64,000 nucleotides of DNA. Source: Candidatus Nomurabacteria bacterium (GTDB lineage Bacteria; Patescibacteriota; Minisyncoccia; Phycocordibacterales; UBA918). Below are positions 4,215 to 38,770 of the stretch, piece by piece. The position numbers were made by a program, and so were the translations under genes. The notes below the pieces were generated by a model, which had not been told where the DNA came from, made no database searches, and was given only the letters and a program-made list of their open reading frames with translations. The stretch spans positions 893,932-957,931 of the forward strand of contig CP060227.1 of NCBI GenBank assembly GCA_023898525.1, written 5' to 3'. Numbering within the stretch: position 1 is the stretch's first letter; every line of letters begins with the position of its first letter.

Positions 4215-4587
4215 TTTTACAGACTTTGCGCCTGCCTCAGACACCAGAAACTAGCTAAACGCTAGTTTACTCTGGTGCCTTCGGCAGGAACCCTCTCCGA
4301 GCCGGGGAAACTGTCGTGCCGTCACACATTCAGTTTCCCTTCGATTCCTGACAAAAGCAAAACGGTTTGCTTTCTCCGAAGGCACATTTAAAAAGCGTTT
4401 TTTTGGCGCAGGTTACTAATTCGCTGACGCTCATAAGTACCTGCTGCCCCAGCTCGCCTAATTTTACGCTAGGAAAGGCGCAAAATGTATGGCTCCGCTT
4501 CACAAACAAGCACGAAAGCAAAGCAGTTTGCTTTCTAAAACAAAAAAGCTTATCCGTCCGAATAAGCTTTTTTGTTTTACTTGTTTG

Positions 4588-4660
4588 TGCCTTCGGCAGG
4601 AATCGAACCCACATTTCCTCCTTAGGACGGAGTAGTTCTATCCATTGAACTACGAAGGCA
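4588..4660 (-). tRNA. tRNA-Arg (anticodon CCT)
   Basis: Reverse complement TGCCTTCGTAGTTCAATGGATAGAACTACTCCGTCCTAAGGAGGAAATGTGGGTTCGATTCCTGCCGAAGGCA folds as a cloverleaf (7-bp acceptor, D arm AGTT/AACT, anticodon loop GTCCTAA, T arm GTGGG/TTCGATT/CCTGC). No CCA is encoded. Confidence 0.8.
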
Positions 4661-4742
4661 ATATAACAATATTAATTAGTGGCTATACTCTAACATAATT
4701 TGTGAAAATCAGTAGTCTCTTGGTATACTTTAAATATATTTT

Positions 4743-5033
4743 ATGTATCAAGATGATAATGGTGAAATAAAGGAATTGTTGAAAGAAAATCAGCGTCTAC
4801 TGATTGAAAATAATCAACTTCTTCACAAGATGCGGCGACATTCGATTATTGGAGCAGTTTTTCGATTGCTTTGGTTTGTATTTGTAATCGGTATTATTTT
4901 GTATGGATATTACCATTATGTAAAACCAAATTGGGAAAATCTAACTTCCAAGATCAGTGAATTAGAACAAGCTTCAAAAGAAGTGGGGGAAGCTAAAGAA
5001 TGGTTTAATTCCCTCAACTTACGAGCCAGGTAA
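4743..5033 (+). CDS. Hypothetical small membrane protein
   Basis: 96 aa with one strongly hydrophobic helix (IIGAVFRLLWFVFVIGIILYGYY) flanked by charged coiled segments. Confidence 0.35.
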   Translation: MYQDDNGEIKELLKENQRLLIENNQLLHKMRRHSIIGAVFRLLWFVFVIGIILYGYYHYVKPNWENLTSKISELEQASKEVGEAKEWFNSLNLRAR

Positions 5034-5116
5034 GTAAAAAGGTGCACAGGAAACCAGAAATTTAGACGGTTGAAATAAAGCTTCAAACAGGTTAGAATAC
5101 CCTCACCTAAATAAAT

Positions 5117-5189
5117 GCTTGGGTAGCTCAGTTGGTAGAGCGCTTCCCTGAAGAGGAAGATGTCGTCGGTTCGAGCCCGACCCCAAGCA
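5117..5189 (+). tRNA. tRNA-Phe (anticodon GAA)
   Basis: GCTTGGGTAGCTCAGTTGGTAGAGCGCTTCCCTGAAGAGGAAGATGTCGTCGGTTCGAGCCCGACCCCAAGCA forms a canonical cloverleaf with anticodon loop CTGAAGA. Confidence 0.9.
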
Positions 5190-5242
5190 CTGGTATATAA
5201 AAAGTCTCTATATAGAGACTTTTTATATACCAGTGCTTGGGG
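5181..5242. repeat. 62-nt perfect palindrome that incorporates the 3' acceptor strand of tRNA-Phe
   Basis: ccccaagcactggtatataaaaagtctctat | atagagactttttatataccagtgcttgggg; the arms are exact reverse complements. Confidence 0.85.
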
Positions 5243-5632
5243 AGGAAAGTGTTAATACACTTTCCGTTCGGGCTCGAAAAGCGCAGTCATGTCGCACGGA
5301 GCGGAGCGAGTACGACAGACGAGCTGGGGTCGAGAACACTTAGTAGATTTGGAGTCGAAGACGAACAAATATACTTAGTGATTCGTGACCGAGCCCGACC
5401 CCAAGCACACTTAAAAATCCCCGTTTAGGGGTTTTTGTGTACTTGGGGTAGTAAGGCACCTTCGTGCCTTACGTCGGGCTCGCACCACAAGAGTATTTCC
5501 ATTTTTATACCCAAAGGGCACAAGTATTCCTTTCAGTCATTAAAAATTAGGTCAACCAGCGGAACAATGTGAGGAGTTTACGACGAACGAGTGAGCTACA
5601 TTAATTTTTAGCGATTTTCTCAATTGTAGATT

Positions 5633-6163
5633 TTATTTCCCACCGTTTATATTACTCTTAACCCTCAACTGTGTACTTCGATGCTTATCAAGCTTAGGTA
5701 AACGAATTTCCAGCAAACCATGCTTTTCTTGAGCCTCTGATTCATCAATAATGACTTCTTCAGGTAATACTAGAGTTCTTGAAAAACTCCCCCAGAATAA
5801 CTCGCGGTGAAAGTAATTGTCGTCGTTGGTTTCTTGATATTCTTCACGGATGCCACGAATGGTTACCATGTCACGGGTTATAGAGATGTCTAAGTCGGAA
5901 GGACTGACTCCAGCTACTAATGCTCGAATAATGATTGCATCGTTAGTCTGGTACATATCTACCGGTAGTTCACCTTCTTGAGGGGTGTGGTCTTGGGTAT
6001 TTTCCTCTTGCCAATCGCTGTCTGTTTCATAAGGGGAATCGTCGTCGCTTTCGGTGTCTTCATCGCCAAAATGATGCTCTTCATCTAAAATACGATCATA
6101 ATCGCTATCATCATCTCTGGAGGTAGAGCCAGTTAGTCGTTCTAAAAAAGAAGGTTTTTTCAT
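5633..6163 (-). CDS. Hsp20/alpha-crystallin family small heat-shock protein with an acidic N-terminal extension
   Basis: ACD-like core (DMYQTNDAIIIRALVAGVSPSDLDISI..., GLLEIRLPK) and a D/E-rich N-terminal region. Confidence 0.7.
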   Translation of the reverse strand: MKKPSFLERLTGSTSRDDDSDYDRILDEEHHFGDEDTESDDDSPYETDSDWQEENTQDHTPQEGELPVDMYQTNDAIIIRALVAGVSPSDLDISITRDMVTIRGIREEYQETNDDNYFHRELFWGSFSRTLVLPEEVIIDESEAQEKHGLLEIRLPKLDKHRSTQLRVKSNINGGK

Positions 6164-6873
6164 ATACGTTTACGTGAAGATGGTTTTTTGGTTGATTCGA
6201 GTAATTTGATCTTTTCAAACAGCAGGAATAGCATGATTATGCCCATCCAGACAAAAAGGAAGATGATCAGTATTCCTTCGCCACTTGACTCCATTATAAA
6301 AAAGTTAAACAAGGCATGCAATAAGACAGCAATGAATAACCCAACTGTACCGTAGATGAGTTTTGTAGAAGCTGATTTGTAGAAAGCGAGGGCGAGAAGG
6401 ACTCCAATGGTGGCTGATGATAGAACGTGAAGTAGGGTAGAGCCAAGGAAGCGAAAAGAACCGGTGATGGCGGCAGTACTGTACTCACCATTAGTAAGAG
6501 GGTTTAGTATAAATAAAGTATTTTCCAAGGCAGCAAAACCAAGGGCAATTGTAATCATGTAGATGATTGGATCAATGGCTTCATCGACAGCCTTGTTCCA
6601 TAGTATGACAAATAATGCTGCTACATACTTAAGTACTTCTTCAATTATTACCCAAACAAACATAACGTTAGAGCCATCGTATAAGTCGATAGCCATTTTT
6701 TGGAGGGGTAAAACTAAGGGTACTACCGCCATACCGGCAATAAATGAGATAGCTATTAGCAGGTAAGGCTCAGGGTGTTTATTGTCTTCCCGTAACCAAA
6801 ACCAGAGCCAAAATAATGCTGGAATCAAGCCAAATAAGAAGGCAACAGCAAAATCAGTGGAACTTATATCCAT
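6160..6873 (-). CDS. PrsW-family intramembrane protease
   Basis: Polytopic membrane protein with IIEEVLKYV, GFAALEN and HxxF motifs characteristic of PrsW/CPBP-type proteases. Confidence 0.55.
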   Translation of the reverse strand: MDISSTDFAVAFLFGLIPALFWLWFWLREDNKHPEPYLLIAISFIAGMAVVPLVLPLQKMAIDLYDGSNVMFVWVIIEEVLKYVAALFVILWNKAVDEAIDPIIYMITIALGFAALENTLFILNPLTNGEYSTAAITGSFRFLGSTLLHVLSSATIGVLLALAFYKSASTKLIYGTVGLFIAVLLHALFNFFIMESSGEGILIIFLFVWMGIIMLFLLFEKIKLLESTKKPSSRKRI

Positions 6874-6949
6874 TTTAATATTGTACCAGTTTTAAAATCG
6901 GTAATTTTTATAGTAGGGGATTATTTTGTTGCAGGTACTGAATTCCGAC

Positions 6950-9900: not shown

Positions 9901-10033
9901 CTGGTGTCTCTTCGGTATTAGCTAGCACCACTAAAGGTGAGTATATCTGTAGTATTAAAGCAAATATTATCGCCGAAGATGTTAGGTTAGTTAAGATTCT
10001 GCTTAATCTATTGTTTAGTCTGAAGTTTTTCAT
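6950..10033 (-). CDS. Giant secreted/cell-surface repeat protein with a C-terminal peptidoglycan-binding (PG_binding_1-like) domain
   Basis: N-terminal signal/TM segment; long S/T/E-rich low-complexity region; at least four copies of a ~60-aa motif (TGDA..N.VN.ANTN.I.S). The C-terminus has LQQFLKS..GVFDDATRVAVAEFQ, typical of PG-binding domains. Confidence 0.55.
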   Translation of the reverse strand: MKNFRLNNRLSRILTNLTSSAIIFALILQIYSPLVVLANTEETPEPAPVAEEQTSTPVDETQIDTGDAVSGLKLESEINTNVVEANTEEEPSDQEDTMDETDTIIDVAEDTETASTTDSTDSEEKTNENATSSVDINTSTTLAATTTENTTEEGGEEVHQNATSTDQVEIPATPTASTTSTSSDPVIEDPEDTDTDETVVEVDLTNSATSSNTATSSANTGGNTTESGNFEINTGDAVSYVDLVNVVNTNIINSTGLIDFIRNVLGYQNFDLRSNFYDIFKSFKTAESSPSCAYDICDPASLLVDIMNDVNINNNIDVIANTGGNSSSGDNGSIDTGTAYASANIVNLANTNIIDSNYLLLTFDNFADLAGSLVLPNSDFFTSLFANNTGGASSYEISNTASVTNDVTTIANTGDNTTSSTEEASITTGNAQAISHTDNLINQNLLNTNSFSMLIRVHGTWSGEIFGLPEGMQWENTGEGIRLYYAPNSQPGAASSAGKITNNATIANNVHVYALTGDNQINDSETGTIETGDAYANSTIVNVANTNVIGSNWANLIFNIYGNWSGNLAFGQPDLWLGLEANTGYRSQVKPGSQIDYKYTIFNGGDTVARNVIVENKFPLNSLYFTDSPVDADDIDNQTHWAIGDIEPGETREFTVHTRTHETFGLNDRLPLPLSSRVYGDQPDANDTDNEDSLLLYVGEKQKQHEGPSKTFAAKFSVAKSADKAFVAPGDTVNYTVKLHSLGGPLFDSLLVDVLRDEEGNVLSEQSWPLDTIKNGEEITIDYSIIIPEGATGVFTNTAQLIGVHGTKQPKYRTLYESTPVEHKLMIGSLAEAELLGLNTTVSTCDPYITTYLRQNKVNNTEEVIKLQQFLKSHISDNVLITGVFDDATRVAVAEFQQQYKEDILIPWGMTRSSGYVYITTQKTINEIMCGNITKFPLTPDQQQEIDFFRINKNQIDVTDWLFSGPVSTPEEDLAEQNPVNESIATKVYPTSILNLTLPPIEQAAVYDRYGNWLRLFNQSHTAYLDY

Positions 10034-10358: not shown

Positions 10359-10476
10359 AACTTATACCTCTCACCAAAATCTTGTCAACCTTGACCAGAT
10401 CTTGGTAGAAGTAGGGTCTTTGACCCATCTTCTACGGATAAAGAAAATTTATCCTACCAGTTTATTTTCGCTGAAT

Positions 10477-11951: not shown

Positions 11952-11984
11952 GACAAATCTAGCGTATGCCTGTTCAAAGATTTT

Positions 11985-13154
11985 CTAAGACAAAGATAGA
12001 TTACCGTCTGCTTTTGCTTCTTTAGAAAAATCTTCTGGAGAAAGGGCGGATTTTTCTCTAGCGTGGCCGGAGAGAGCGATCATAATACTATTATCGGTGG
12101 ATAGGGCTGGGTCTGGTAGGTAAATGTTTAGTTCAGAAAAGTCTGTTTTTTTCTTTAAGTCTGTTATGGCTTGGCGAAGATGTTGGTTGGCAGATACACC
12201 TCCACCGACAATCAAGGACTTAACGGAATATTTTTCTATCGCTTGGGTTACTTTTTTTATCAGTACTTCTATTACCGCATCCTCAAAATCCCTGGCTAAA
12301 GCTTTCTTATTATCGTCTGTTAGTTCTCTGTCCTTAGTAGCGTAAAGTACAGCGGTCTTTAGACCAGAAAAAGAAAAATCCAAATCACCAGAATGAAGCA
12401 TCGGTCTTGGTAGGTCGGTAAACGGTGGTAGTTGTTCCTTGTGGGCTTCTTCGGCTAAACGACTGATGATCGGTCCGCCTGGGTAATCTAGTCCGAGTAG
12501 GCGAGCGACTTTGTCAAAAGCTTCACCGACCGCATCATCTCGAGTCTGCCCGATTTTTTCGTATTGACCCCAGTCTTGCATAAGGACGAGTTCGGTGTGT
12601 CCTCCTGACACTAGAAGAGATAGGCTAGGGAAGGTTAAAGGAGCTATTTTGTGTCCATCAAAAACTGAAGCTAAGATGTGTCCCTCCATATGGTCGACTG
12701 GTACCACAGGTGTATTCCATATATAAGCTAGAGCTTTAGCAAAATTAATACCAACCCAAAGTGCAGGCTCAAGTCCTGGGCCAGTCGTGACCGCGATAAG
12801 ATCAATTGGTGGTCGACCGTAAGAATTATAAAAGGTGATTACTTGGTCGGCTAAGCCATGTTCGCGCGAGAGTAAAGTATGGATGTGGTCTTTTTGATCT
12901 TCAGTTAAAGCGGGAGAAAAATTACTTTCAAGCTTAGCCTCCTTTAAGGCCTTCTCTAACATTGGTAACACGGTAGCGATGTGCTCGCGCTTAGCGAGGG
13001 CAGGGAAGACACCACCGTACTCACGGTGGGTGTCTATTTGGGAAAAGAGGGCATCGCCTAAAACTTCGTATTTAGAATTAGGAAAATCACCAACCGCTTC
13101 GATAATACTGACAGCGGTTTCATCACAGCTGGTTTCGATGGATAGGATTAGCAT
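11985..13154 (-). CDS. tsaD: tRNA N6-adenosine threonylcarbamoyltransferase TsaD (Kae1/Gcp family)
   Basis: MLILSIETSCDETAVSII N-terminus, metal-binding His region (HMEGHIL) and GGVSAN motif; longer than typical (389 aa) because of internal insertions. Confidence 0.85.
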   Translation of the reverse strand: MLILSIETSCDETAVSIIEAVGDFPNSKYEVLGDALFSQIDTHREYGGVFPALAKREHIATVLPMLEKALKEAKLESNFSPALTEDQKDHIHTLLSREHGLADQVITFYNSYGRPPIDLIAVTTGPGLEPALWVGINFAKALAYIWNTPVVPVDHMEGHILASVFDGHKIAPLTFPSLSLLVSGGHTELVLMQDWGQYEKIGQTRDDAVGEAFDKVARLLGLDYPGGPIISRLAEEAHKEQLPPFTDLPRPMLHSGDLDFSFSGLKTAVLYATKDRELTDDNKKALARDFEDAVIEVLIKKVTQAIEKYSVKSLIVGGGVSANQHLRQAITDLKKKTDFSELNIYLPDPALSTDNSIMIALSGHAREKSALSPEDFSKEAKADGNLSLS

Positions 13155-13311
13155 GAAGGTGTCCGATACAGGACTTGAACATTACATGTTCAGTACAGGT
13201 TGTCGATATTTTGGTCCAGGTATTCCCAAAATATCTGACTAACCTTTTCAAGTCCTGGGGCCAAAAGTAAAACTTTTCCTGGTAAAAAACCAGGAAATCT
13301 TTCACTTTGTG

Positions 13312-13384
13312 TCCGATACAGGACTTGAACCTGTGACCTCTACAATGTCAATGTAGCGCTCTACCAGCTGAGCTAACCGGACTT
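13312..13384 (-). tRNA. tRNA-Val (anticodon GAC)
   Basis: Reverse complement GTCCGGTTAGCTCAGCTGGTAGAGCGCTACATTGACATTGTAGAGGTCACAGGTTCAAGTCCTGTATCGGACA forms a cloverleaf with anticodon loop TTGACAT. Confidence 0.85.
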
Positions 13385-15264: not shown

Positions 15265-15321
15265 TTTAAAAAATATAAAAACAGCCGCCCTATTTTGGCG
15301 GCTGTTTTTATATTTTTTAAA
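15265..15321. terminator. Bidirectional terminator, a perfect palindrome with 25-bp arms
   Basis: tttaaaaaatataaaaacagccgcc-ctattttg-ggcggctgtttttatattttttaaa; it overlaps the stop codon of the downstream minus-strand gene. Confidence 0.7.
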
Positions 15322-15904: not shown

Positions 15905-16468
15905 TTAGTCTGTTTCAATACCAACTAATATCGGATAGACAACTGAGTGGTGTAGACCAAACACTCTTTCAAACTGTTCTTTTAACTTCTTGGTTTCACT
16001 AAGGGCCAGGTCACAGTTATAACCGAAGCCTTTACAGCCAAGATGTTCATCGCTCTTTGAGTAGTGGTAGGTGGTAAGAACGATACTTTTTTTACCCTGA
16101 GATACCGCATAATCCACCCAGTCTTTCATGACTTGTCCAAAAAAGGGCCAACCAAGATCAAATTGACCACCTAAATTACGAAACGGTTGGATGATACCGA
16201 GCGGGGTTTTGGTTATGATTGGTAAGTGTAGTCTACCGTCCATACACTTCAAGACGGCTATTTCTGTTGGGTGTTTGGCACGGTATAGTCGACGTTCCAA
16301 GACGATGTCTGGGTTAGAGAAATTATCGCTACGTTTTTTATTGTGTTCCAAAAGCAAGTTTATCAGATTTTCATTTTGCATAAGTAAATATAATATTTTT
16401 ACAACAGTATAGTATGGCATAAGGATAGATAAAATTCTATGTGTTCCTTCCTTGTTCGTTATACTCAC
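15905..16468 (-). CDS. Beta-class carbonic anhydrase-like protein (tentative)
   Basis: CxDxR motif (KCMDGRL) and HxxC motif (HLGCKG) about 60 aa apart, as in beta-CA zinc ligands. Confidence 0.35.
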   Translation of the reverse strand: MSITNKEGTHRILSILMPYYTVVKILYLLMQNENLINLLLEHNKKRSDNFSNPDIVLERRLYRAKHPTEIAVLKCMDGRLHLPIITKTPLGIIQPFRNLGGQFDLGWPFFGQVMKDWVDYAVSQGKKSIVLTTYHYSKSDEHLGCKGFGYNCDLALSETKKLKEQFERVFGLHHSVVYPILVGIETD

Positions 16469-16670
16469 TGCGGAAGCGGAGGGATTCGTCCCAGAATCAC
16501 GGCTATTTTATTTCGCTTCACTCATAAAATAAGCTCGTGTTCTTGGACGGCTGCTCGCATGTTTACTCGTTTTTAAATACTCGTAAACATAAGCTGCGCA
16601 GCTTCGAATCCCTCACGTAAGCCAAGAAGTTGGCTTACTCGCTTCCGCAGTTTCCACTACGTTACAACTG

Positions 16671-16759
16671 CGGAAGCGGAGGGATTCGAACCCTCGATGC
16701 GGGGTTGCCGCATACGCGATTTCGAGTCGCGCGCCTTCAACCAACTCAGCCACGCTTCC
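16671..16759 (-). tRNA. tRNA-Ser (anticodon CGA), class II with long variable arm
   Basis: Reverse complement GGAAGCGTGGCTGAGTTGGTTGAAGGCGCGCGACTCGAAATCGCGTATGCGGCAACCCCGCATCGAGGGTTCGAATCCCTCCGCTTCCG; anticodon loop CTCGAAA, long variable stem-loop. Confidence 0.85.
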
Positions 16760-26626: not shown

Positions 26627-26639
26627 ACGAAACGGAGTA

Positions 26640-28111: not shown

Positions 28112-28679
28112 CCCTTACTTACAAGGTATCTGAAGAATTTAAACGAGATAAGTCTCAATTGGTGAACCATACCGCGCCACATCTCGAACTTTTGATACAA
28201 AACCGAATGATAGTTCAAAGAAAATATTCAAGTTGATACATGACAAAGAACCACCAGACAGGTCAGAACCAAAAGCGGCATAACCAAACTTTTTCATATC
28301 TATTATGTTATCAAGTTGAGTCTAATGTGATAAGAGGAGAAAAAAGTTGTTTCTGGTATAATTTAGATGGGCTAACGCTCATTTACTATTAATTTCATGT
28401 ATATGATATTCATAGAAAAATTTGAGCTAGTTCCTACAATATTCGGCTAGTCATCCACAAAAGTGTGGAATTTGATCATTGCTAATCAGTGAGCAAGAGA
28501 TCGTACACCATACTCTGACTTTTTTGTCTAGCGGTGAGTATGATACGACCGGGGCTAGAGCATGACGAATATCGTGATGTGGGAAGATGTATCATGTTGC
28601 ATAAGCCCAAAAAGCAGTATACGGAATACTGCGGAACATAGCTCCTAAAAACCACCATAAGGTGGTTTTTAGTTTCTGG

Positions 28680-28922: not shown

Positions 28923-29310
28923 AAGGGTAGGGAAGTTTTTAAAATACTTAAGTTGTGGTCATGCACTGCACATAAGTTATTGACTTTTATATTCAATCAG
29001 TGGTATATTATTGATACAAATTGACATTAGTCATCAATCCCTCCCTCAAAAGGGAAAGGGTTAAAAAATAAGAGCTCCCGTTGGGGAGTTTTTATTTTAG
29101 GTAATCCAATAAATCTCGTTTTATATTTGTAAACTCCCTTCCTCCTACTCTACCCATTAACTTAGTAATTCTATTGGCGTCCCATAACCTCATTTGCGTC
29201 AGCATGGCACATTGTTTGTTCCCTTTAAAAACAAAATGATGATAGTGTTTATTGTTTTTAATTTGAGTGGTTAAAGGTACTCCCCAAAATAAGCGGGTGT
29301 TAAATTCCAT

Positions 29311-29865
29311 CTTTACCCCGCATGCTTGTCATCGGGGGAAACACTGTCATACTAAACAGTAATGAAAGGTAAACCACAACATATCAAAAAACCACACAAC
29401 AAAACTCTGTTCATCTATCATCTGGTATGCCCAGTAAAATACAGAAGAGATGTATTTACACCACCAATATCAAAAACATTTAAAAACTTATGTTTGGAAT
29501 TTGGTCCAGCTTACGAGATATACTTTCTTGAAATAGGAATAGACGAAGATCATGTACACTTTTTAATACAAACAATTCCAAACATACGTTTCTCTGATAC
29601 GGTAAAGAAAATAAAAAGCATCACCTCCAATCATCTCTTTAAAATCCACCCTGAACTAAAAATAAAACTCTGGGGAGGAAAGTTCTGGACTGAAGGTTAT
29701 TATGCAAATACAGTGGGTAATGCCAGTATGGATATTATTACCAATTACGTTAAAAACCAAGGTTATCCCGAATACCAACAGCTACACTCCGCACCAGTTC
29801 AGACTTCACTGTTTACTACCTAGTCCAACGCCGATACCCCGCATGCTTGTCATCGGGGTAGTTCA
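29311..29865 (+). mobile_element. IS200/IS605-family (IS200-like, tnpA-only) insertion sequence with subterminal hairpins
   Basis: The same imperfect palindrome ccccgcatgcttgtcatcgggg occurs at both ends (29315-29338 and 29837-29858). The internal gene is a Y1 HUH transposase. Confidence 0.6.
29362..29823 (+). CDS. tnpA: IS200-like Y1 (HUH) transposase TnpA
   Basis: YHLVCPVKYRR, HVHFLIQ (HxH) and WGGKFWTEGYYANTVG signatures. Confidence 0.8.
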   Translation: MKGKPQHIKKPHNKTLFIYHLVCPVKYRRDVFTPPISKTFKNLCLEFGPAYEIYFLEIGIDEDHVHFLIQTIPNIRFSDTVKKIKSITSNHLFKIHPELKIKLWGGKFWTEGYYANTVGNASMDIITNYVKNQGYPEYQQLHSAPVQTSLFTT

Positions 29866-30060
29866 TTTTTTTACAACCAACACCGGACGATTAAATACAC
29901 CACCTTTTCCATTTTCTTCATGACCGACATTTACTCCTAAACTACACCACCATATATCACGCTCTTTGAAAGTTCTGTGGCTGGTTTTTGCATCTAATTT
30001 AGTTTTTATAATGTTCCACTTTTTGAAGTCCTTCATCCATATAGCATAAATAAAAGACAT
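29863..30060 (-). pseudogene. MazF/PemK-like mRNA-interferase toxin, C-terminally truncated by the IS200-like insertion
   Basis: ERDIWWCSLGVNVGHEENGKGGVFNRPVLVV matches the PemK/MazF N-terminal motif; the ORF stops at the IS end. Confidence 0.5.
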
Positions 30061-30499
30061 TAAAAGTCAAAGGTTTATTTCAATAGTTCGATTCCCGGTA
30101 GGGTTCAACCATTATTTTCAGTTGCTGCAACTTTTATACCCATAACCCAAAACACAACATCGCCCTTAAAATAAGGGCAATGTTGTGTTTTGGGTGACAA
30201 TTTGCACTGGTGGCAAGTTATCTAGTCGTTGTGAACCATACCGAGCCACATCTCGAACTTTTGTTGCAAAATCCAGTAATAGCTCGAAAAAGATATTTAA
30301 ACTTATACATGACAAGGAACCAGCTGGTAATGAATAGGAGAAACAAACTACTTAACACTATTTATGAATCTTTATACATACTCTCAAAAAATGTATAACC
30401 TGGATAGGATGGAGAAGATGCATCAATGGTAATTTCCATCACAACCTCATCGTCCTCTTGACTGCTATATTGTGTATGCTTTGATATACTGATGGTCGT

Positions 30500-31321: not shown

Positions 31322-31510
31322 CATACTAATCAAATGTATAAAAACACTACTCCCTTTACTTTACTGACTCAATCAAGTCTGAATTAGAGTCATATGACTG
31401 GTTCGATTCCCCTTAAGGTATGAAATTTTGAATCAAAATTTGCACTTTTGGTAATCAAAATATGGCTTATTTTAATGTTGGATGGATAGAAATGTTACCA
31501 AAAATAACAT

Positions 31511-31754
31511 TCCTCTCTATGTGATGTATTAGCGCACCGCGCTCTAACTCACTACATCGCGAAGCGGTGAACCAACAACGCGCGGAGCGCGTGGTGATGC
31601 GGACGTGAAGCGTACGCATTCGGGAACCTCTGCGCGCCTCGCTGCCTCGCTCCACTCGGCCCCCAAAACCAAAGAAATTTCCTTACAATCATTTTTTCGG
31701 TGGAGGGGTCTGGGGAGGAGCCGACATAAAAAGGAAAGGATATTTCTTTGGTTT
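31511..31754. repeat. GC-rich long inverted repeat, copy A (about 244 bp), the left boundary of the R-M module
   Basis: Exact reverse complement of 36601-36845 on base-by-base comparison. Confidence 0.9.
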
Positions 31755-32100
31755 GGGATCGCCGCTTCGTCCTCCAAAAAGCTCCGTTTCAGTCTCCATT
31801 TATTTGAGAGTCTTCCACTTCGCTTTTCTCCGTACTCGCGGCGTGCGAGGCGCGCTCCCGTAGCGTACCCGCGTGGTAATTCTAGCGTTCGCTCACCACA
31901 CTCTAGCACCTCCGCACTGCTCGCTCGCTTCGCTCGCGCGAGCTGCTGCGGTGCTTCCGTGTGTGAGCTTGGTGGCTTCGGTTGGGTTCGTGGTTTTCAA
32001 AGTGGTTTGCGCTGACGCGCAAGCAAGTCTGTATGTGCTTGTCCCACCCTCCCAATACGCGCACAAACAACCCCGCCTAGCGTCGGGGTTGTTGCTCCCT

Positions 32101-33720
32101 CTAATTCTTTTTTAGGATTTTTTCCTTTCCGACCAAGTTTAGGATTTTCGGGGAAGCGTCTTTTAGAGAAATCAATGTCAATTTCTTTTTCGCCCGTGTT
32201 ATCCCGACTAAAAATTCACATATTTTATGATCAGTAAACTTCTTGGTGTCCTTATCTAAAATATGTTCATCATCTATTCCTACATAATACACAAAATCCG
32301 CAGAGAGTCCCTTGGAGCTCGTAACAGTAGTTAGCTCAACTTCTATAGCGTCTTTTTTATTTGACTCAAAACCTCTGACAATCTTTGTCAGGATATTTTT
32401 TAGATTAAAAATTTTACTAAATCGTTCTAACTCTGTCTTGCTCAGTTCTTTTTTGCCAGTTTTAACCTTTTTGAAAATATTGATATCTTCTTCTATTTTT
32501 CCTTTTATGCCATCATCTAGACAATTCCATATTTTCTTTTGTTTCTCATTACTTTCATTTATAACCTCCTTCCTTTTTGTCTCATCTAAATACAAGGGTA
32601 AAATCTTCCTAAGAGCCAAATTATCAGTCTTCCTTTTTAGAAGAATTTCGAATACTTCACATAGCTTCCTGTGTTTAATTTTATTTCGCTCCTCGTTAGA
32701 AAACAATTCAACACCAACAACGGTAAATCCTTTTTTCATCAAACCCTCATATACAGTTTGTTTTAGATATGATGGCGTTAAAATCAGTACTCTCTGTTTA
32801 TCTTTGTACTCCTCAAGATCTTCTTCAATCATTTTTGACAATCTGTACGCAAGTTGATTTCCGATTACCGAGGGTACAAAAGTTATTTGTGCATATTTCT
32901 TACTTTCTTCATCTTTGTGTCCCTCTGGATACAAGAACTCCTTTTCCAGTCTTTCGTCCAAACATCCATTTGTTTTTGCATTCCGTATCAAATCATTAGT
33001 AGTCTCTATGATAACTTTTGGACATCTATAACAATAATCCAGCGAAAATCCTTCAGTGTCACCGTCGTTGTATAAACTTCTTATTTGAGATGGCTTTGCC
33101 TGTTTAAAATGGTACAGAGACTGGTCGTCATCACCAACTAAGATCACAGTACTCTGTTTGTTGAGAAATTTTATCAGCTCATACTCCGATTTATTGAAGT
33201 CTTGGAATTCATCAACTAAAATCAGATCGTACGTTGGTATCTTTGACTCATTTTGTTGAAAAAGAAGATTTGCAGCGTAAACAACTGAATTAAATGAATA
33301 TAATTTTCCGTTTGAGCTGTAGAATTCCTTTCTCTGTTTGTAGAACTCTTTTTCGTTATCAGTCAAATCGTTATCATGAAACTTTTTCTCGTAGTTAATT
33401 TTACTGCCGTGAATAAAAGAGTAGTCTTCACTTATATACTTGTCTAAATCCTCATCTAAATCACAATCTTCTTCTTTGACGAGTATGCTTCTGGCGAAAG
33501 CATGTAATGTTGAGACATCAACGTTGGGAAAATCGTTAAACTCCTCAGATAAATCATCAATAAGTTTATTTATAAAAGATAATATAAGTATTTTCTTACC
33601 TTTATATTCCTCTGATTTAATTATAGTCCCAAATGTAAAACTTTTACCGGTTCCAGGTCCAGCTAATCCGACAAACAACTTTTTATCTGACTGTTTTATT
33701 TTTTCTAGAATATCAGTCAT
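32101..33720 (-). CDS. UvrD/Rep-like superfamily-1 helicase
   Basis: Walker A GLAGPGTGKS, Walker B/motif II LILVDEFQD, motif III VGDDDQSLY, and a C-terminal UvrD_C-like region. Confidence 0.7.
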   Translation of the reverse strand: MTDILEKIKQSDKKLFVGLAGPGTGKSFTFGTIIKSEEYKGKKILILSFINKLIDDLSEEFNDFPNVDVSTLHAFARSILVKEEDCDLDEDLDKYISEDYSFIHGSKINYEKKFHDNDLTDNEKEFYKQRKEFYSSNGKLYSFNSVVYAANLLFQQNESKIPTYDLILVDEFQDFNKSEYELIKFLNKQSTVILVGDDDQSLYHFKQAKPSQIRSLYNDGDTEGFSLDYCYRCPKVIIETTNDLIRNAKTNGCLDERLEKEFLYPEGHKDEESKKYAQITFVPSVIGNQLAYRLSKMIEEDLEEYKDKQRVLILTPSYLKQTVYEGLMKKGFTVVGVELFSNEERNKIKHRKLCEVFEILLKRKTDNLALRKILPLYLDETKRKEVINESNEKQKKIWNCLDDGIKGKIEEDINIFKKVKTGKKELSKTELERFSKIFNLKNILTKIVRGFESNKKDAIEVELTTVTSSKGLSADFVYYVGIDDEHILDKDTKKFTDHKICEFLVGITRAKKKLTLISLKDASPKILNLVGKEKILKKN

Positions 33721-33724
33721 GGAT

Positions 33725-34471
33725 TTATTTCTGAAACACGAACAAATGTTCGTGCATTATTAGCAAGAAATTGCTTTCTTTTGATTTGTTAACCCAAAAA
33801 CCAGTCGCTTTGCAGTTGTATTGTCGCTTGATGATGTCTTCCTTGAGATCAAAACCAGCGTTTAGAAAGCGATCCATAACACGATATGCAAGCGGTTGAT
33901 ACATTTTTTGTCGACGGGTGTCACCAATCAGAATCGCACAAAATTTTCCTGGTTTTAAGACGCGGTACAGTTCTTTTGCAACCTTTTCCATTTCGTCGGC
34001 AAATTCTTCAATTCCGTGGATGTTTGAAAGATCTTCGTTAATTTCTCCTTCACTGTATTTGATTATGTCAGCGTAGGGCGGGTGTGTGAGAATAAAATCA
34101 ATGCTCTCATTCTCGGCTTTGACGAGGTTGCGCGCGTCACGTTTTGCCACTTTTTGCCAAGCTTTGTTCTCAACGGGAAACTTCAAACTTTCTTTCGTTC
34201 GCTCCAAGGCAACATCGTTTACATCTGAACAAATGATATTGCGGTTGAGTATTTTTGCTTCAATCGCTGTCGTACCACCACCAATCATTGGATCAAGCAA
34301 AATATCACCCTCGTTGGAGTAACGGAGAATAAGATTGCGCGCGACTTCTGGTGACCAGTTGCCGCGCCAGTCTGACTTATGCGTTGCCCAATTCCCGCGA
34401 CGAGGAAAAGCCCACACCGTCGTGCATTCAAGATCAAATTCATCGGGGTGTAGTTTCATTTCCTTTGCCAT
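33725..34471 (-). CDS. Beta-class N6-adenine/N4-cytosine DNA methyltransferase (DpnA / M2.DpnII-like)
   Basis: Motif order is SAM-binding DPMIGGGTT and then the catalytic THPPY (DPPY-like), as in PF01555 methyltransferases. Confidence 0.75.
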   Translation of the reverse strand: MAKEMKLHPDEFDLECTTVWAFPRRGNWATHKSDWRGNWSPEVARNLILRYSNEGDILLDPMIGGGTTAIEAKILNRNIICSDVNDVALERTKESLKFPVENKAWQKVAKRDARNLVKAENESIDFILTHPPYADIIKYSEGEINEDLSNIHGIEEFADEMEKVAKELYRVLKPGKFCAILIGDTRRQKMYQPLAYRVMDRFLNAGFDLKEDIIKRQYNCKATGFWVNKSKESNFLLIMHEHLFVFQK

Positions 34472-34475
34472 TGTT

Positions 34476-35336
34476 TTACCAAGTTAGTTCATTGAGTACG
34501 TCGTCCTCAAGCATTTTGAGATTAAAAACTTGACCTTTGTTGTGTTCAAAAGTTTCTTCAAGTGGTCGCTTTGTGGTTTCCCAGCCGAGTCCGTCTGTAA
34601 CCCAAACAAAATCAATATCTTGTTTTGTTAGCTCGTCATATAAACTACGGAATTCGCCACACACCGCCTTTAGTTTTGAGCCACCTCCGTTATAGAAGTT
34701 TGTCTCAAACAATTTTAGTTTTTTGGTCTGTGGATTGTATACAGCGAAATCAAAGCTTCGTTCTGATTTATCGACATTTATTTCGTAGCTCCATTTGGCT
34801 TTGATGTCGGTTGCTCGTGCTTGGGCGATGTATTCAAAGCCACGTTTTTCTGAAAAATCTTTGACGTACGATTCCACAATTTCTTCCATGAGTGTTCCTC
34901 CACGGTTTTTTCGTCCGTTGCTATCCAACCCAACCTCGACTCCCATAACATAATCGACAAGATTTTTGATTCCATCTTTTTGGAAAAGGCGAGCAAGCCC
35001 AGATTTTTCGATAAACTCGAAATACTTTTCGGCACCATCTTCTCCGTTGGAGAAATCGAAAAACTCCGAATCTTTGGTGACCTTATCAAAAATCTCAAGT
35101 TTGTTTTCGCGTACTGCTAACAAGACAGGCAACGCTTTTACAATATCAGGATTTGATTCGTAGAGCTTTGCAAATTCTTCCGTTAGATTTTCCTTGCCGA
35201 GCAAGTAATTGAGTTTGTTTAGGGAAATCTCAAGATCAGTGGCGTTTGTGGTAACTTTGTCCCAATTTACAAAATAATCCCATGTTTTTATGGAGCTTTT
35301 GAAACCGTCCACCAGTTCTGTAAATGTTTTGTTCAT
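34476..35336 (-). CDS. DpnII/MboI-family type II restriction endonuclease (GATC-type)
   Basis: Blocks LNYLLGK, IKNLVDYVMGVEVGLDSNGRKNRGG, ETNFYNGGGSKL and FVWVTDGLGW are as I remember them from the DpnII family; the length is 286 aa. Confidence 0.65.
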   Translation of the reverse strand: MNKTFTELVDGFKSSIKTWDYFVNWDKVTTNATDLEISLNKLNYLLGKENLTEEFAKLYESNPDIVKALPVLLAVRENKLEIFDKVTKDSEFFDFSNGEDGAEKYFEFIEKSGLARLFQKDGIKNLVDYVMGVEVGLDSNGRKNRGGTLMEEIVESYVKDFSEKRGFEYIAQARATDIKAKWSYEINVDKSERSFDFAVYNPQTKKLKLFETNFYNGGGSKLKAVCGEFRSLYDELTKQDIDFVWVTDGLGWETTKRPLEETFEHNKGQVFNLKMLEDDVLNELTW

Positions 35337-35341
35337 ATCAT

Positions 35342-36298
35342 TCAGTAATTAGTTACTAATACCTCGCTAATCTTTCCGCGCTTTGCGGCGTTTGAGTTTA
35401 TTGCACGTCCTGCAGCGACTTTCGACACTTTTACGCCTTTGATTCCCGAGTAGAGTTTGTTAATGAAAGGAGTGTCAGAGTTAGAAAGCATGACGTAACA
35501 ACCGCGTTTGTGTAATTCGAAAAATGTATCTCTCAATTCCGCTTGCTCCTTGTCCAAGAATGAATCTGCAGTGTACGAAGTGAAAGACGCCGTCTTGCTC
35601 ACGGGATAGTATGGCGGATCAAAATATACAAAGTCTTCTTTCTTTGCTTTTTTAAGTACCGCTTTGTAGTCTTGGTTTTTAACGGTGACTTTTTGCAATG
35701 CTTTTGACACTTTGCGCAAGTTTTCCTCGTCGCAAATTATAGGGTTTGTATATTTACCAAACGGTACATTGAAACCGCCTTTGCTGTTGACTCGGTACAT
35801 TCCATTGAAACAAGTTCGGTTTAGGAAAATAAAACGTGACGCAACATCAATATCTGACAATGCTTTTGGATCCCTTGCGCGCACTTCAAGGTAATACTCT
35901 TTTTCGTATTTGTGTTTTTTGAGAGATTTAATCAGTGCATCAACGTCATTTTTAATGACGTTATAGGTTACTACAAGTTCGTTGTTTAGATCTGAAAGTT
36001 CTGCTTTTTTTGGGAGAAGATCGAAAAAGACAGCACCTCCACCAACAAACGGTTCAAAGTAAGTATTTGTGACAGGATCAAAATCATCTGGTGGGTATAA
36101 CCCCATATCGCGGAATTGTTGGAGGAGTTGTCTTTTCCCACCAACCCATTTCACAAACGGCTTCGGCTTCTCATTAACAATTCGAGTAGCGTCCTCAAAC
36201 AATCGTGTTTTGTCTGCATTATGGAAAACATGATGCGCGTAGATTTTGTTGATATTTAACTCATGTGCGAGTTTTGTGATTGTTTGTTGCGTAGTCAT
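35342..36298 (-). CDS. Dam-like (alpha-class, D12) N6-adenine DNA methyltransferase (DpnM-like)
   Basis: VKWVGGKRQLL, FEPFVGGGAVFF and DPPYYP motifs. Confidence 0.8.
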   Translation of the reverse strand: MTTQQTITKLAHELNINKIYAHHVFHNADKTRLFEDATRIVNEKPKPFVKWVGGKRQLLQQFRDMGLYPPDDFDPVTNTYFEPFVGGGAVFFDLLPKKAELSDLNNELVVTYNVIKNDVDALIKSLKKHKYEKEYYLEVRARDPKALSDIDVASRFIFLNRTCFNGMYRVNSKGGFNVPFGKYTNPIICDEENLRKVSKALQKVTVKNQDYKAVLKKAKKEDFVYFDPPYYPVSKTASFTSYTADSFLDKEQAELRDTFFELHKRGCYVMLSNSDTPFINKLYSGIKGVKVSKVAAGRAINSNAAKRGKISEVLVTNY

Positions 36299-36302
36299 AA
36301 CT

Positions 36303-36506
36303 TTATTTTAGCAGTTCTGTGGTGCTAACTCCGAGTACCTTAGCTAGTTTGGAAATTGTCTCAAGGGTGGGGTTTGTTTTTCCGTTTTCGATATTGCTGA
36401 CATAACTGCGACTACAACCCATACCGCGCATAACATCACCTTGAGACATCCTTTTCGCTTCGCGAATCCTTTTCAAATTATTGCCGAGTTTTGTGGAATC
36501 ATTCAT
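36303..36506 (-). CDS. XRE-family HTH regulator, probably the controller (C) protein of the R-M operon
   Basis: 67 aa; LKRIREAKRMSQGDVMRGMGCSRSYVSNIENG is a classic XRE HTH. It is the first gene of the co-oriented cluster. Confidence 0.65.
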   Translation of the reverse strand: MNDSTKLGNNLKRIREAKRMSQGDVMRGMGCSRSYVSNIENGKTNPTLETISKLAKVLGVSTTELLK

Positions 36507-36600
36507 TCACACAATTATACCCAACTCTTACATTATACACGACTATTATATTTTAGTATAATAGGGTAATGGTGGAGAAAATGATTTTTAGGGACTCATT

Positions 36601-36845
36601 GCGGCGATCCCAAACCAAAGAAATATCCTTTCCTTTTTATGTCGGCTCCTCCCCAGACCCCTCCACCGAAAAAATGATTGTAAGGAAATTTCTTTGGTTT
36701 TGGGGGCCGAGTGGAGCGAGGCAGCGAGGCGCGCAGAGGTTCCCGAATGCGTACGCTTCACGTCCGCATCACCACGCGCTCCGCGCGTTGTTGGTTCACC
36801 GCTTCGCGATGTAGTGAGTTAGAGCGCGGTGCGCTAATACATCAC
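36601..36845. repeat. GC-rich long inverted repeat, copy A' (the partner of 31511-31754)
   Basis: See copy A. Confidence 0.9.
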
Positions 36846-36954
36846 CAATCGAAACAAACTCGGGAGCAAGGCCGCCTGCGGCGGCTATGGGGGCAATATG
36901 GCGGCGGCGTGCCGCCGCGCCCTGGGCAAAAGCAGCCTTTGTTTCTGCCACGCA
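36842..36954. repeat. GC-rich inverted repeat, copy B (about 113 bp), immediately upstream of the recombinase start
   Basis: Exact reverse complement of 38424-38536. Confidence 0.9.
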
Positions 36955-36986
36955 CTGCGTAATCCCAAAGTGAAACCCAGTACATT

Positions 36987-38594
36987 ATGAAAGAACTCAA
37001 ACCAAAATATGTTCTCTACGCTCGCAAGAGTACGGAAGATGATGATAAACAAGTAATGAGTATTGAAGCTCAGTTAGTTGAGTTGCATGAGTTTGCGCGT
37101 AGAGAACAACTTGAAATCCTATCGGAGTTTCAAGAGTCAAAAAGCGCAAAGACGCCCGGGCGTGAGACGTTTGGTGAGATGATGGCGTTTATTGAAAATC
37201 ATAACGAGCCACTTGGTATTCTCGCGTGGCACCCCGATCGTCTCGCTCGCAATTCGATAGACGGTGGGCGTATCGTGTATGCAGTGGACACAGGGAGTAT
37301 CGCGTCTTTGCGCTTTCCGACCTTTTGGTTTGAGCCAACGCCGCAAGGAAAGTTCATGTTGCAAGTGGCGTTCGGTCAGTCGAAATATTTTTCGGATAAC
37401 TTAGTAGAAAACGTGAAGCGTGGAATGCGCCAAAAACTTCGCCGTGGTGAATGGTTGACCAAAGCCCCGTTTGGGTATGTGAACAATCCAAAGACTCGCA
37501 ATATCGAACCGCATCCTGTGTATTCAAAGATTGTGGTGCGGGGCTTTGAAGAATATGCCAAAGGCACATACACCATAGAATCATTGGCGAAGTTTTTGGC
37601 TGACCTCGGTTTGGAAACCAAGAACCGAACACCACTTGGCAAAGCTTCCATTGTGCGGATGCTTTCTAACCGAGCGTATATCGGATTTATCAAATACAAA
37701 GATGAATGGCACGAAGGAAGCTTTGCGCCGATTATCACTCCCACACTGTTTGAAGCAGTCCAAAAGGTGCTCGAAACAAAACGGCGGCCTCGGGTACAGA
37801 AAGAACCACATAATTTTCCACTCACGCAGTTTGCCGAGTGCGGTGAGTGTGGCGGCATGATAACTGCTCAGTACACTACTAACAGGCATGGTACGAAGTA
37901 TGCGTATTATCGCTGTACTCAAAAGAAAGGATCATGCCGCCAACCGTACGTGGCCACCGCTTTGTTGGAGACACAAGTGAATGACATGCTTCAAACAGTT
38001 GCACTGCCGTCAGTGGAGATAGACAAGATTGATGGGTGGATTGTACGCTGGGAGCGTGAACAAACCGCTGATGACGGCAGTGCTGCCCGAGACCTTAAAA
38101 ATGAGATTGCGAGCGTGCAAGAGAAGCTTGATCGCTTAGTTTCTCTGTACCTTGATGGCGATATAGAGCGCGATAGTTATCTCGACCGCAAAGACAAGCT
38201 GATGCGCGAAAAAACGACGCTCGCTGAGAAATTGAATGGTCTCGGGCGTGGGAGTGATAATCGGCTCCAACCCTTGCGGCGTTTCGTTTTGTCTTTAAGA
38301 GAAGCCGTGAATTTGATAGAGAGCGGTGAGATGCACGAAAAACGTGACTTTCTGAAAAAGCTCGGCTCTAACCCTTCTCTTAAAGACAAAACACTTTCAT
38401 TGCACTGGGATGCACTTTGGGATGGCGTGGCAGAAACAAAGGCTGCTTTTGCCCAGGGCGCGGCGGCACGCCGCCGCCATATTGCCCCCATAGCCGCCGC
38501 AGGCGGCCTTGCTCCCGAGTTTGTTTCGATTGGTGACCCTACGGGGAATCGAACCCCGATTTGCAGGATGAGAACCTGCTGTCCTAGCCGTTAG
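36987..38594 (+). CDS. Large serine recombinase (resolvase domain + recombinase domain + zinc ribbon + coiled coil). The C-terminal ~55 aa are encoded by repeat B' and the tRNA-Glu 3' region and are probably not native
   Basis: N-terminal YARKSTEDDD..S (catalytic Ser region), Cys-rich CGECGG...YYRC zinc ribbon, then a coiled-coil. The tail is Ala/Gly/Arg-rich and comes from GC-rich repeat DNA. Confidence 0.8.
   Translation: MKELKPKYVLYARKSTEDDDKQVMSIEAQLVELHEFARREQLEILSEFQESKSAKTPGRETFGEMMAFIENHNEPLGILAWHPDRLARNSIDGGRIVYAVDTGSIASLRFPTFWFEPTPQGKFMLQVAFGQSKYFSDNLVENVKRGMRQKLRRGEWLTKAPFGYVNNPKTRNIEPHPVYSKIVVRGFEEYAKGTYTIESLAKFLADLGLETKNRTPLGKASIVRMLSNRAYIGFIKYKDEWHEGSFAPIITPTLFEAVQKVLETKRRPRVQKEPHNFPLTQFAECGECGGMITAQYTTNRHGTKYAYYRCTQKKGSCRQPYVATALLETQVNDMLQTVALPSVEIDKIDGWIVRWEREQTADDGSAARDLKNEIASVQEKLDRLVSLYLDGDIERDSYLDRKDKLMREKTTLAEKLNGLGRGSDNRLQPLRRFVLSLREAVNLIESGEMHEKRDFLKKLGSNPSLKDKTLSLHWDALWDGVAETKAAFAQGAAARRRHIAPIAAAGGLAPEFVSIGDPTGNRTPICRMRTCCPSR
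38424..38536. repeat. GC-rich inverted repeat, copy B' (the partner of 36842-36954)
   Basis: See copy B; it ends within the CCA end of tRNA-Glu. Confidence 0.9.
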
Positions 38595-38605
38595 ACGATA
38601 GGGCC
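38531..38605 (-). tRNA. tRNA-Glu (anticodon CTC) with an encoded CCA
   Basis: Reverse complement GGCCCTATCGTCTAACGGCTAGGACAGCAGGTTCTCATCCTGCAAATCGGGGTTCGATTCCCCGTAGGGTCACCA forms a cloverleaf with anticodon loop TTCTCAT. Confidence 0.8.
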
Positions 38606-38770
38606 ATGTTGTTTAATTTTGCTTTTTTGGTCAATATTGGTTTTGTGGTAACCGGTTCTCATTGCTGAGAACTTCTCCTATCACCTCGTAAACATCGGTG
38701 ATTTCTTCCTGACGTCAGAACCGGATAAAAAGTTAATCACTTTTTATTATCCTAGCCGTTAGACTAAAAA

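Follow-up and report, generated by a model that had tools for sequence, protein, structure and literature searches.

Four of the five tRNA genes of the DNA considered here, a 64 kb window (the whole stretch analysed) of the genome of a Candidatus Nomurabacteria bacterium, are followed by short copies of their own 3' halves, which raises the question of what kind of element would place such copies, in both orientations, behind a tRNA gene. A first, sequence-only reading had described this pattern for all five tRNA genes of the window (Arg, Phe, Val, Ser and Glu), which were called with ARAGORN and Rfam. After mapping exact self-matches within 700 nt of each tRNA, we recover the direct repeats of the last 16–22 nt and the inverted copies of T loop and T stem at Arg, Phe, Val and Ser, in an order more regular than had been described, together with an inverted acceptor segment at Arg (4376–4385) that had been missed, whereas tRNA-Glu has no direct 3' copy in its vicinity and its inverted copy is located 8.4 kb away. 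The copies are the arms of a unit whose architecture, templating by the adjacent tRNA, block-wise gain and loss and strand-specific fold of its core are established, as is the lack of a recombinase recurring in its neighbourhood. In our favoured interpretation, which we advance tentatively and to which we assign somewhat less than an even chance, these units are non-autonomous, gene-less miniature integrative modules with specificity for the 3' ends of genes for tRNA and transfer-messenger RNA (tmRNA) in Paceibacteria-type bacteria of the candidate phyla radiation (CPR).

Four window tRNAs, Arg, Phe, Val and Ser, share one layout. Read in the sense of the tRNA, it begins with M, the part of the tRNA that reaches from the T loop to its 3' end (about 21 nt at Arg). 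A terminator-like hairpin usually comes next; then follow M', which repeats M in inverted form, a folded core of one of at least three conserved types and a direct copy of M. Within M', the inverted acceptor 3' strand corresponds to tRNA positions 65–74 and the inverted T loop with the 3' T stem to positions 54–64, and the two are mostly separated at the acceptor/T-stem boundary by hp2, a hairpin of about 25 nt with 8–9 bp. At its inner end, M' invariably complements G53-T-T-C, the direct arm starts at T-loop positions 56–59 and the junctions invariably fall within the T-loop sequence TYGAA(C) / C56. Between the inverted T segment and the direct copy, which comprises the last 16–22 nt, lies an insert of 49–115 nt, and entire units measure about 110–310 bp and contain no open reading frame (ORF). 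As to the hairpin between tRNA and M', a terminator scan flags it at Arg and Val, the A+T-rich hairpin at Phe is not flagged, Ser is devoid of any hairpin, and many copies in metagenomes look canonical. Three types of core are found in the window, with type 1 residing behind Phe and Arg, type 2 behind Ser and type 3 behind Val. All of them contain an apical module composed of a stem, UGA, a mini-hairpin (e.g. GCGAAGC), GAA and the returning stem. Three window units (at Phe, Ser and the distal one at Arg) are predicted to fold alike into a three-way junction that positions hp2 exactly at the acceptor/T boundary, and the 3' end of tRNA-Phe, its hairpin and M' together make up a Y-shaped hairpin with 40 bp and perfect pairing (z = -19).

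This organization is best exemplified by tRNA-Phe(GAA) (5117–5190, plus strand; ARAGORN and Rfam), which, like tRNA-Arg, is followed by two units on its own strand. The first contains a hairpin (5191–5232), the inverted acceptor (5233–5242), hp2 (5243–5267), the inverted T segment (5268–5278), a type-1 core (5275–5390, nhmmer E = 9e-23) sharing 98.6% identity over 71 nt with a Phe element of a related genome (L010), and a 19-nt direct copy of the end of tRNA-Phe (5390–5408), its presumed displaced 3' end; as a whole (5231–5411), this unit folds with a z-score of -9.8. The second, partial unit (5410–5597) consists of a hairpin (5410–5441), inverted acceptor (5441–5448), hp2 (5449–5473), inverted T segment (5474–5482, within an exact self-match at 5473–5482), a nested insertion of about 70 nt (5483–5553) and the truncated 5' domain of a type-2 core (5554–5597). 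The nested insert (CACCACAAG...TTTCAGTCATTAAAAATTAGGTC) breaks the inverted arm after the TYG of the complemented T loop and is found at the identical position in two other loci (L171 and L166), and its shared position in three independent loci suggests that this step of the T loop is a specific insertion point. At tRNA-Ser(CGA) (16670–16759, minus strand; ARAGORN and Rfam), the unit (16468–16650, minus strand, z = -12.1) is composed of an inverted acceptor (16640–16650, with the exact match at 16640–16648), hp2 (16615–16639), an inverted T segment (16603–16614), a type-2 core (16490–16606, nhmmer E = 4e-14) and a direct copy (16468–16488) of 19 nt (16470–16488), or 21 nt if two flanking bases are included.

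The tRNA-Arg(CCU) gene (4587–4659, minus strand; ARAGORN and Rfam), whose last ~21 nt serve as templated M, is directly followed on the same strand by a terminator-like hairpin (4536–4579) with an 18-bp stem and a subsequent T run. Its proximal unit contains a second hairpin (4514–4535, part of 4501–4535), the sequence of which also occurs in L003, L005 and L010, the segment CTTGTTTGTG (4501–4510), in which the final 3 nt of the tRNA and 7 nt of its flank recur in inverted form, and a type-1 core (4409–4506, nhmmer E = 2e-16 / 1.7e-17). The distal unit (4275–4385, minus strand, z = -5.7) carries the inverted acceptor (4376–4385, 10 nt), hp2 (4351–4375), an inverted T segment (4340–4350, 11 nt), a short core of 49 nt (4291–4339) and a direct copy of the tRNA 3' end (4275–4290, 16 nt). 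Finally, the unit at tRNA-Val(GAC) (13309–13382, minus strand; ARAGORN and Rfam) extends over 13159–13297 of the same strand and encompasses a terminator-like hairpin (13275–13297), an inverted T segment (13247–13257) with no separate inverted acceptor piece, a type-3 core (13179–13246, nhmmer E = 1e-14) and a direct copy of 22 nt (13159–13180), which ends 4 nt before the start codon of tsaD (ATG at 13154).

The first reading had held that each copy matches its own tRNA and is not a product of chance, and had proposed to look for the arrangement in relatives, where both points could be substantiated. Related loci were retrieved by similarity to TsaD and belong to the Paceibacteria/Parcubacteria group of the CPR, with the nearest relative (L001) sharing 87% amino-acid identity. 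The window and 47 related genome loci (48 sources) provided 81 tRNAs; within 600 nt downstream of each, we collected matches to its final 26 nt that were 10 nt or longer. Direct self-matches were detected at 15 tRNAs, inverted ones at 14 and both at 10, compared with 19, 7 and 0 out of 810 controls in which a 3' end was matched against the flank of a tRNA with different anticodon, and with 2, 2 and 0 in upstream flanks. Equally, in 48 non-redundant tRNA-adjacent units among the matches listed, the inverted arm accounts for a mean of 18.0 out of the last 22 nt when compared with its own tRNA but for only 7.3 with other tRNAs, and in 32 of the 48 the core is followed by a direct copy of 10 nt or more, compared with 4 of 480 controls. 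Generic similarity between T loops does generate inverted matches of at least 9 nt in 112 of 480 cross-tRNA controls from these matches, but direct and inverted matches occurred together in none of the 810 controls, and we thus regard chance, with its vanishingly small probability, as excluded. In the same 48 sources, nhmmer searches with profiles of the three core types gave 31 matches in 10 sources, with a core no more than 450 nt downstream of 20 of the 81 tRNAs and all 24 core–tRNA pairs in the same orientation.

The breadth of the family was judged from these relatives and from metagenome contigs, the window representing 64 kb of its genome. The metagenome scan employed the type-2 core pattern only and returned at least 120 contigs with a type-2 core; the sample is thus ascertained on this type and, as part of the 3' domain of the core was fixed by the search pattern, invariance in that part is an ascertainment effect. 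Among the metagenome matches listed, 92 cores are preceded by 450 nt or more of sequence, and for 60 of these a tRNA ends no further than 450 nt upstream; all 64 nearby tRNAs, of at least 19 anticodon classes, are encoded on the strand of the core, while the 43 listed cores without adjacent tRNA are mostly distal units of arrays, units at tmRNA genes and units at fragments of tRNA-Glu. In at least three loci, units are found behind tmRNA genes and their arms match the tmRNA. The core types are common to different genomes and different tRNAs.

Several features indicate that the core is maintained as a folded single strand. Compensatory changes are found in 28 of 45 predicted pairs of seven type-2 elements, including hp2. 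In 91 unique cores among the matches listed, 97% of the stem cells contain canonical pairs, a fraction that drops to 28–39% if the 3' partner is slid, and in the same listed set 15 of 28 core pairs have changed on both sides, the stems contain 216 G·U pairs but only 24 A·C mismatches, and the fold of the sense strand reaches -23.6 kcal/mol compared with -14.8 kcal/mol for the antisense strand. Loops keep their sequence in more than 120 loci and the identity between non-coding units is well above that of neighbouring genes. In searches of Rfam 15, only tRNA matches reach the gathering score, and matches to the units at relaxed E-values lie far below it and amount to hairpin-like noise. Among viral contigs of IMG/VR, the 56 matches to the type-2 pattern are all attributable to chance, as none is matched by nhmmer, and the type-1 motif does not occur. 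We found no description of the core sequences or of related concepts in literature searches. A hammerhead ribozyme, to half a core of which the apical UGA[mini-hairpin]GAA bears some resemblance, was dismissed by inspection, since the module is a simple hairpin with neither a three-way junction nor CUGA. As a separate observation, the type-1 and type-2 cores behind one tRNA-Phe (L004, 5565–5886) share the palindrome TCCGCCAGCTGGCGGA in the position of the apical mini-hairpin, which suggests that core copies of one genome undergo exchange or conversion.

Different rules apply to the arms, which vary in step with variants of tRNA-Phe between genomes. Their complementarity to the tRNA end is 95.5% Watson-Crick with no strand bias in G·U pairs (9 versus 7), whereas the cores are rich in G·U. 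The arms thus are copies made at the level of DNA, while the cores are selected as single strands of tRNA-sense polarity. Both direct and inverted copies extend into the gene-specific flank. Where tRNA and direct copy differ, M' agrees with the tRNA at 24 positions and with the direct copy at 7, which fits the view that the direct copy is a displaced, decaying 3' end and that the 3' end of the tRNA, the hairpin and M' form a coherent block. We rejected an origin of the copies from a retro-copied mature tRNA or a primer-binding site, because they include gene flank and because CCA is no commoner than expected by chance, following the discriminator in 3 of 28 direct copies (as read from the table; the Arg copy of the window also has it) against an estimate of about 1.75. 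We equally rejected a tandemly duplicated pseudo-tRNA, since the inverted arm is, unlike a direct duplicate, complementary through the T loop and past the 7-bp acceptor stem.

The conserved fold gives weight to the alternative that the units are functional structured RNAs in tRNA trailers, transcribed by read-through. In such RNAs, the helix between inverted and direct arm would mimic the acceptor/T-arm, with hp2 replacing the D/anticodon domain, and the excision and finishing of a stable core RNA would fall to RNase P, RNase Z and the CCA-adding enzyme; alternatively, M' would pair with the 3' half of the precursor and control its maturation. A strand-specific core with many compensatory changes and G·U far in excess of A·C, loops conserved over more than 120 loci, the co-orientation of every copy with its tRNA, the elevated non-coding identity and the exact placement of hp2 are all features expected of such a molecule. 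There is also no terminator between tRNA-Ser and its unit, and tsaD must be read through the unit at Val. Conversely, a canonical-looking intrinsic terminator usually separates tRNA and unit, a unit is present at only about a quarter of the tRNAs of relatives, and the type of core varies at the same tRNA between close relatives. These points also bear on the proposal of the earlier reading that a conserved downstream structure pairs with the tRNA 3' end: M' indeed stays complementary to it, but the intervening hairpin, the lack of an element at most tRNAs of relatives and the variable core speak against such a role. In addition, M' tracks the tRNA and not the direct copy, which would be its partner in the supposed helix, the arms are free of wobble bias and no Rfam family is matched. 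In balance, we consider trailer RNAs the main rival but a less likely explanation than integration.

The question of read-through concerns two genes in particular, as tsaD starts 4 nt after the direct copy at Val and an ORF (15905–16468) starts 1 nt after that at Ser. A consensus scan identified no promoter inside either unit, and both genes may depend on transcription through the units. A conserved sequence preceding tsaD, TCTCTTGTATAGTGCG, was considered as a decayed direct repeat and discarded, as a similar TATAGT/TATACT box is found at equal distance in distant relatives that have no tRNA at this place; it is more likely a -10 box.

We return to the integration of miniature modules as the reading that we favour, for which comparisons between loci provide evidence. 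At tRNA-Ala(UGC) of one locus (L122), a hairpin (b) succeeds the tRNA and leads into an inverted arm, after which come a type-2 core and the direct copy, whereas in two other loci (L114 and L155) the tRNA-Ala gene with encoded CCA is followed by a different hairpin (a), an arm, a type-1 core, a direct copy lacking CCA and then by hairpin b and two further units. Hairpin b is identical at 34 of 35 positions between L122 and L114, while the shared upstream gene is 66–73% identical. From this comparison it follows that whole units are gained or lost beside the tRNA and that the proximal unit supplies the working 3' end. Similarly, an intact tRNA-Val ends 5 nt before tsaD in L018, and the direct copy of the unit at Val in the window ends in like manner 4 nt before this gene. 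In a third case (L132 and L192), the DNA upstream is unrelated and the bodies of tRNA-Gly are 86% identical, while the region from the T arm through the unit is about 99% identical and a gene further downstream is clearly less conserved. Turnover is also evident between close relatives, with the Ser core being of type 2 in the window and of type 3 in L001 and the number of units at tRNA-Val ranging from none to two. As in genomic islands, the insertions thus reside in the 3' part of a gene that has been rebuilt, which applies to intact tRNAs, the Ala loci and tmRNA alike, and the displaced 3' fragment is found as direct repeat at the far end, on the original flank.

On this basis, a unit would enter by recombination inside M, the tRNA would be rebuilt from the unit's own M, and the former 3' end would be pushed downstream to become the direct repeat. 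Repeated events would stack units in tandem, with the newest beside the tRNA. The recombinase would presumably act in trans; by analogy with known folded sites, the fold-back of M on M' could offer the attachment site as a duplex within single-stranded DNA or an RNA intermediate, and the hairpins of the core might constitute the recognition structure, as in integron attC or CTX phage attP. The earlier suggestion of footprints left by integrating miniature elements has thus found support in block-wise gain and loss, the displaced 3' end and the spacing between Val and tsaD, but the units are more than footprints, since they belong to a conserved folded family. M', the kind of copy that it had not expected from simple integration, has turned out to be an integral and better-kept part of the unit. 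A further possibility, which we hold with less confidence, is that the units represent a new class of mobile or semi-mobile element in CPR bacteria, in which a gene-less single strand of about 200 nt folds into a Y-shaped mimic of the acceptor/T-arm duplex of its target together with the conserved two-hairpin core and is, via a host enzyme, recombined into or processed like the cognate tRNA or tmRNA gene. Such a tRNA-templated folded attachment site would possibly double as a tRNA-mimicking RNA.

Several observations weigh against integration. The units are gene-less and carry no integrase of their own beside the attachment site, and when ORFs within 4 kb of 121 elements among the matches listed were clustered, no family of recombinases, transposases or reverse transcriptases recurred; the search for an associated protein yielded housekeeping families only. 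Among the loci compared, we encountered neither an excised form nor a precise pair of empty and filled sites from one population, and the difference between L114 and L122 is equally explicable as deletion between repeats. Copies at different tRNAs of one genome have diverged, while copies at the same tRNA are similar across genomes, which also fits conserved resident functional elements. The inverted arm is not demanded by the standard integrase model, and one core (L008, 5127–5238), which is devoid of tRNA-like arms, lies towards the 3' end of a protein gene. Finally, tsaD has no recognisable promoter after the unit at Val, so that this unit is probably transcribed, which leaves room for a role as RNA. 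With respect to neighbouring genes, we also note a recurring ORF of about 259 residues, in which LAGLIDADG-like motifs (homing endonuclease) were recognized by eye only, within 4 kb of some elements (L135, 4126–4906, and five other metagenome loci).

Among known systems, the units come close to islands that reside in tRNA and tmRNA genes, which, in the cited accounts, integrate in the T loop, leave direct repeats of roughly 20 bp and accrete in tandem (PMC4383910; PMC3146451). With the tyrosine-integrase islands catalogued in Islander, as outlined there, the units have in common a target reaching from the T loop to the 3' end, the restoration of the gene, a far repeat (of 16–22 nt in the units) and tandem arrangement (PMC4383910), but they differ in their size of 110–310 bp, the absence of genes, the inverted arm, the folded core and the use of the same cores at 19 or more tRNA species. 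The ssrA islands of Dehalococcoides, considered here together with cis-mobilizable elements, insert midway through the T loop, leave 20-bp repeats and are arranged in tandem downstream, with a conserved motif just upstream of each repeat and with some members lacking their own integrase (PMC3146451). The tandem downstream arrays resemble those of our units, and a serine recombinase is found in both cases, DsiB in Dehalococcoides and a protein of 535 residues at tRNA-Glu of the window; yet these islands are kilobases long, carry genes, use a single target gene and contain neither an inverted arm nor a folded core.

A mechanistic analogy, and no more than that, connects the units with integron attC and CTX phage attP sites, in which imperfect inverted repeats likewise fold into a hairpin that serves as recombination partner, strand-specific, with structure better conserved than sequence and with protruding elements that mark the strand. 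Unlike in these sites, the arms of the units copy the adjacent tRNA, and in place of the R boxes of attC (RYYYAAC ... GTTRRRY) they display, by eye, a junction TYGAAC / C-R-A at the inner instead of the outer end of the arm. We found no link between the units and IntI or Xer, nor does an integrase recur within 4 kb of the elements among the matches listed. In being short, non-coding, modular and folded repeats with several module types, located after genes and around terminators, the units are reminiscent of REP/BIME/REPIN, BOX, ERIC and Correia elements. The ends of REP/BIME/REPIN-type repeats are the same at every copy, whereas those of the units are templated by the neighbouring tRNA and lie almost exclusively at tRNA and tmRNA 3' ends. 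Lastly, the closing helix resembles the stacked acceptor and T stems with a side hairpin of tRNA-like RNAs (the tRNA-like domains of tmRNA and bacterial Y RNA, and viral ones), but the T loop does not survive as a loop, the helix is a copy of the local tRNA and there is no Rfam match.

The genomes of CPR bacteria are tiny, and knowledge of their mobile DNA and non-coding RNAs is scarce. Against this background, the units constitute an abundant, easily recognised gene-less family that is found at most kinds of tRNA and at tmRNA and that keeps a complement of the 3' end of its host tRNA. If mobile, they would point to an as yet unknown recombination route that reads the structure of tRNA genes and would serve as strain-level markers; if RNAs, they would define a new family of tRNA-linked structured RNAs. 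They account for many of the annotation-confusing 'tRNA fragments' in CPR genomes and would affect expression of downstream genes, as for tsaD of the window.

The tRNA-Glu(CUC) gene (38531–38605, minus strand, ARAGORN, with encoded CCA) has no unit in its vicinity. An inverted arm, TTCGATTCCCgGTAGGGT (30087–30104, minus strand), is contiguous with one mismatch and is preceded, in tRNA orientation, by a hairpin (30145–30195); a weaker second copy is found at 31402–31419. Since the homologous region of L001 (2400–2580) retains arm, type-2 core and direct copy, this arm is the relic of a former trailer unit of tRNA-Glu that has been parted from its tRNA by inserted DNA. Besides a DpnII restriction-modification cassette and a helicase, the intervening DNA encodes a large serine recombinase. 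The latter (36987–38594, plus strand, 535 aa, with Resolvase, Recombinase and Zn_ribbon_recom domains) runs with the 3' end of its ORF antisense into the 3' half of tRNA-Glu, and its gene is bracketed by inverted repeats of 112 nt with 100% complementarity (36842–36953 and 38425–38536), the right one of which ends in the last 6 nt of tRNA-Glu (TCACCA). Comparable cases were found in three metagenome loci (L136, L151 and L167), where tRNA-Glu is located 1.8–6.7 kb upstream of a degenerate Glu-like 3' fragment and a unit.

Such classical island insertions lend some credit to the notion that the units are passive scars of gene-carrying islands deleted to their ends, with the inverted copies generated by template-switch extension of the terminator palindrome, and the perfect palindrome of tRNA end, hairpin and arm, which includes non-tRNA flank, and the plain Watson-Crick character of the arms would both be accounted for. 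Scars would, however, not be expected to contain three covarying cores common to 19 tRNA types on more than 120 contigs or a conserved hairpin at a fixed place inside the inverted arm, and we regard this origin as improbable.

An IS200-like element in the same region (29300–29870) with a Y1 transposase ORF (29362–29823, PF01797, E = 9e-35) brings up another alternative, in which the units are REP/REPIN or IS200/IS605-derived hairpin repeats, mobilised as single-stranded DNA by a Y1 (HUH) transposase targeting the T loop. Besides the presence of this gene, the small size of the non-coding elements, their strand-specific hairpins located after genes, the invariable position of the junctions in the T loop and the ~70-nt insert at one spot in three loci would be in line with such a process. 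The ORF is flanked by identical 24-nt hairpins, TACCCCGCATGCTTGTCATCGGGG (29314–29337 and 29835–29858), which are the element's own ends and unrelated to the cores, and on this ground we discarded this copy as mobiliser. Neither does a Y1 gene recur within 4 kb of the 121 elements among the matches listed, nor do the arms, which differ for each tRNA, conform to a REP/REPIN–RAYT system. To our knowledge, IS200/IS605 elements do not duplicate their target, and target duplication, be it direct or inverted, would thus be foreign to them. We therefore view this route with as much doubt as the passive scars and rank both below trailer RNAs.

The region contains further features of potential interest. 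Inverted repeats of 245 nt with 100% complementarity (31521–31765 and 36601–36845) enclose the DpnII-type cassette, with methyltransferases at 33725–34471 and 35342–36298 and the endonuclease at 34476–35336, and a UvrD-like helicase (32101–33720), and the G+C content near this segment rises to 0.47, compared with about 0.40 for the window. Segment 31521–36845 could be invertible or transposable. Beside the IS200-like element, a truncated fragment of a MazF/PemK-type toxin was recognized by eye only (29880–30060, minus strand). A direct repeat of 92 nt with 83% identity (28162–28253 and 30231–30322), whose complement begins with GTTCGAGATGTGGCTCGG...GGTTCAC, aligns poorly to the end of tRNA-Glu, and a similar sequence precedes the Glu-type unit in L001; it may represent the 3' end of a coding region or else a tRNA fragment, displaced and degenerate, that marks tandem islands. 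Elsewhere in the window, a bidirectional terminator-like hairpin (15270–15310) with weak leader- or sRNA-like matches in Rfam looks ordinary.

The only repeat that tRNA-Glu has in its vicinity is located upstream of the gene (38750–38764), where 15 nt of the D-arm region recur, preceded by a hairpin. It belongs to a mirror pattern at tRNA 5' ends, where tandem direct copies of the first 12–22 nt are located upstream at regular spacing (L015, 8950–9235; L022, 13821–13900; L023, 9486–9870; L003, 9525–9615). These copies often read GCT-GTC-TTGGTAG with an altered D loop, and their unit lengths are 124 nt (L015), 35 nt (L022) and 88 nt (L003).

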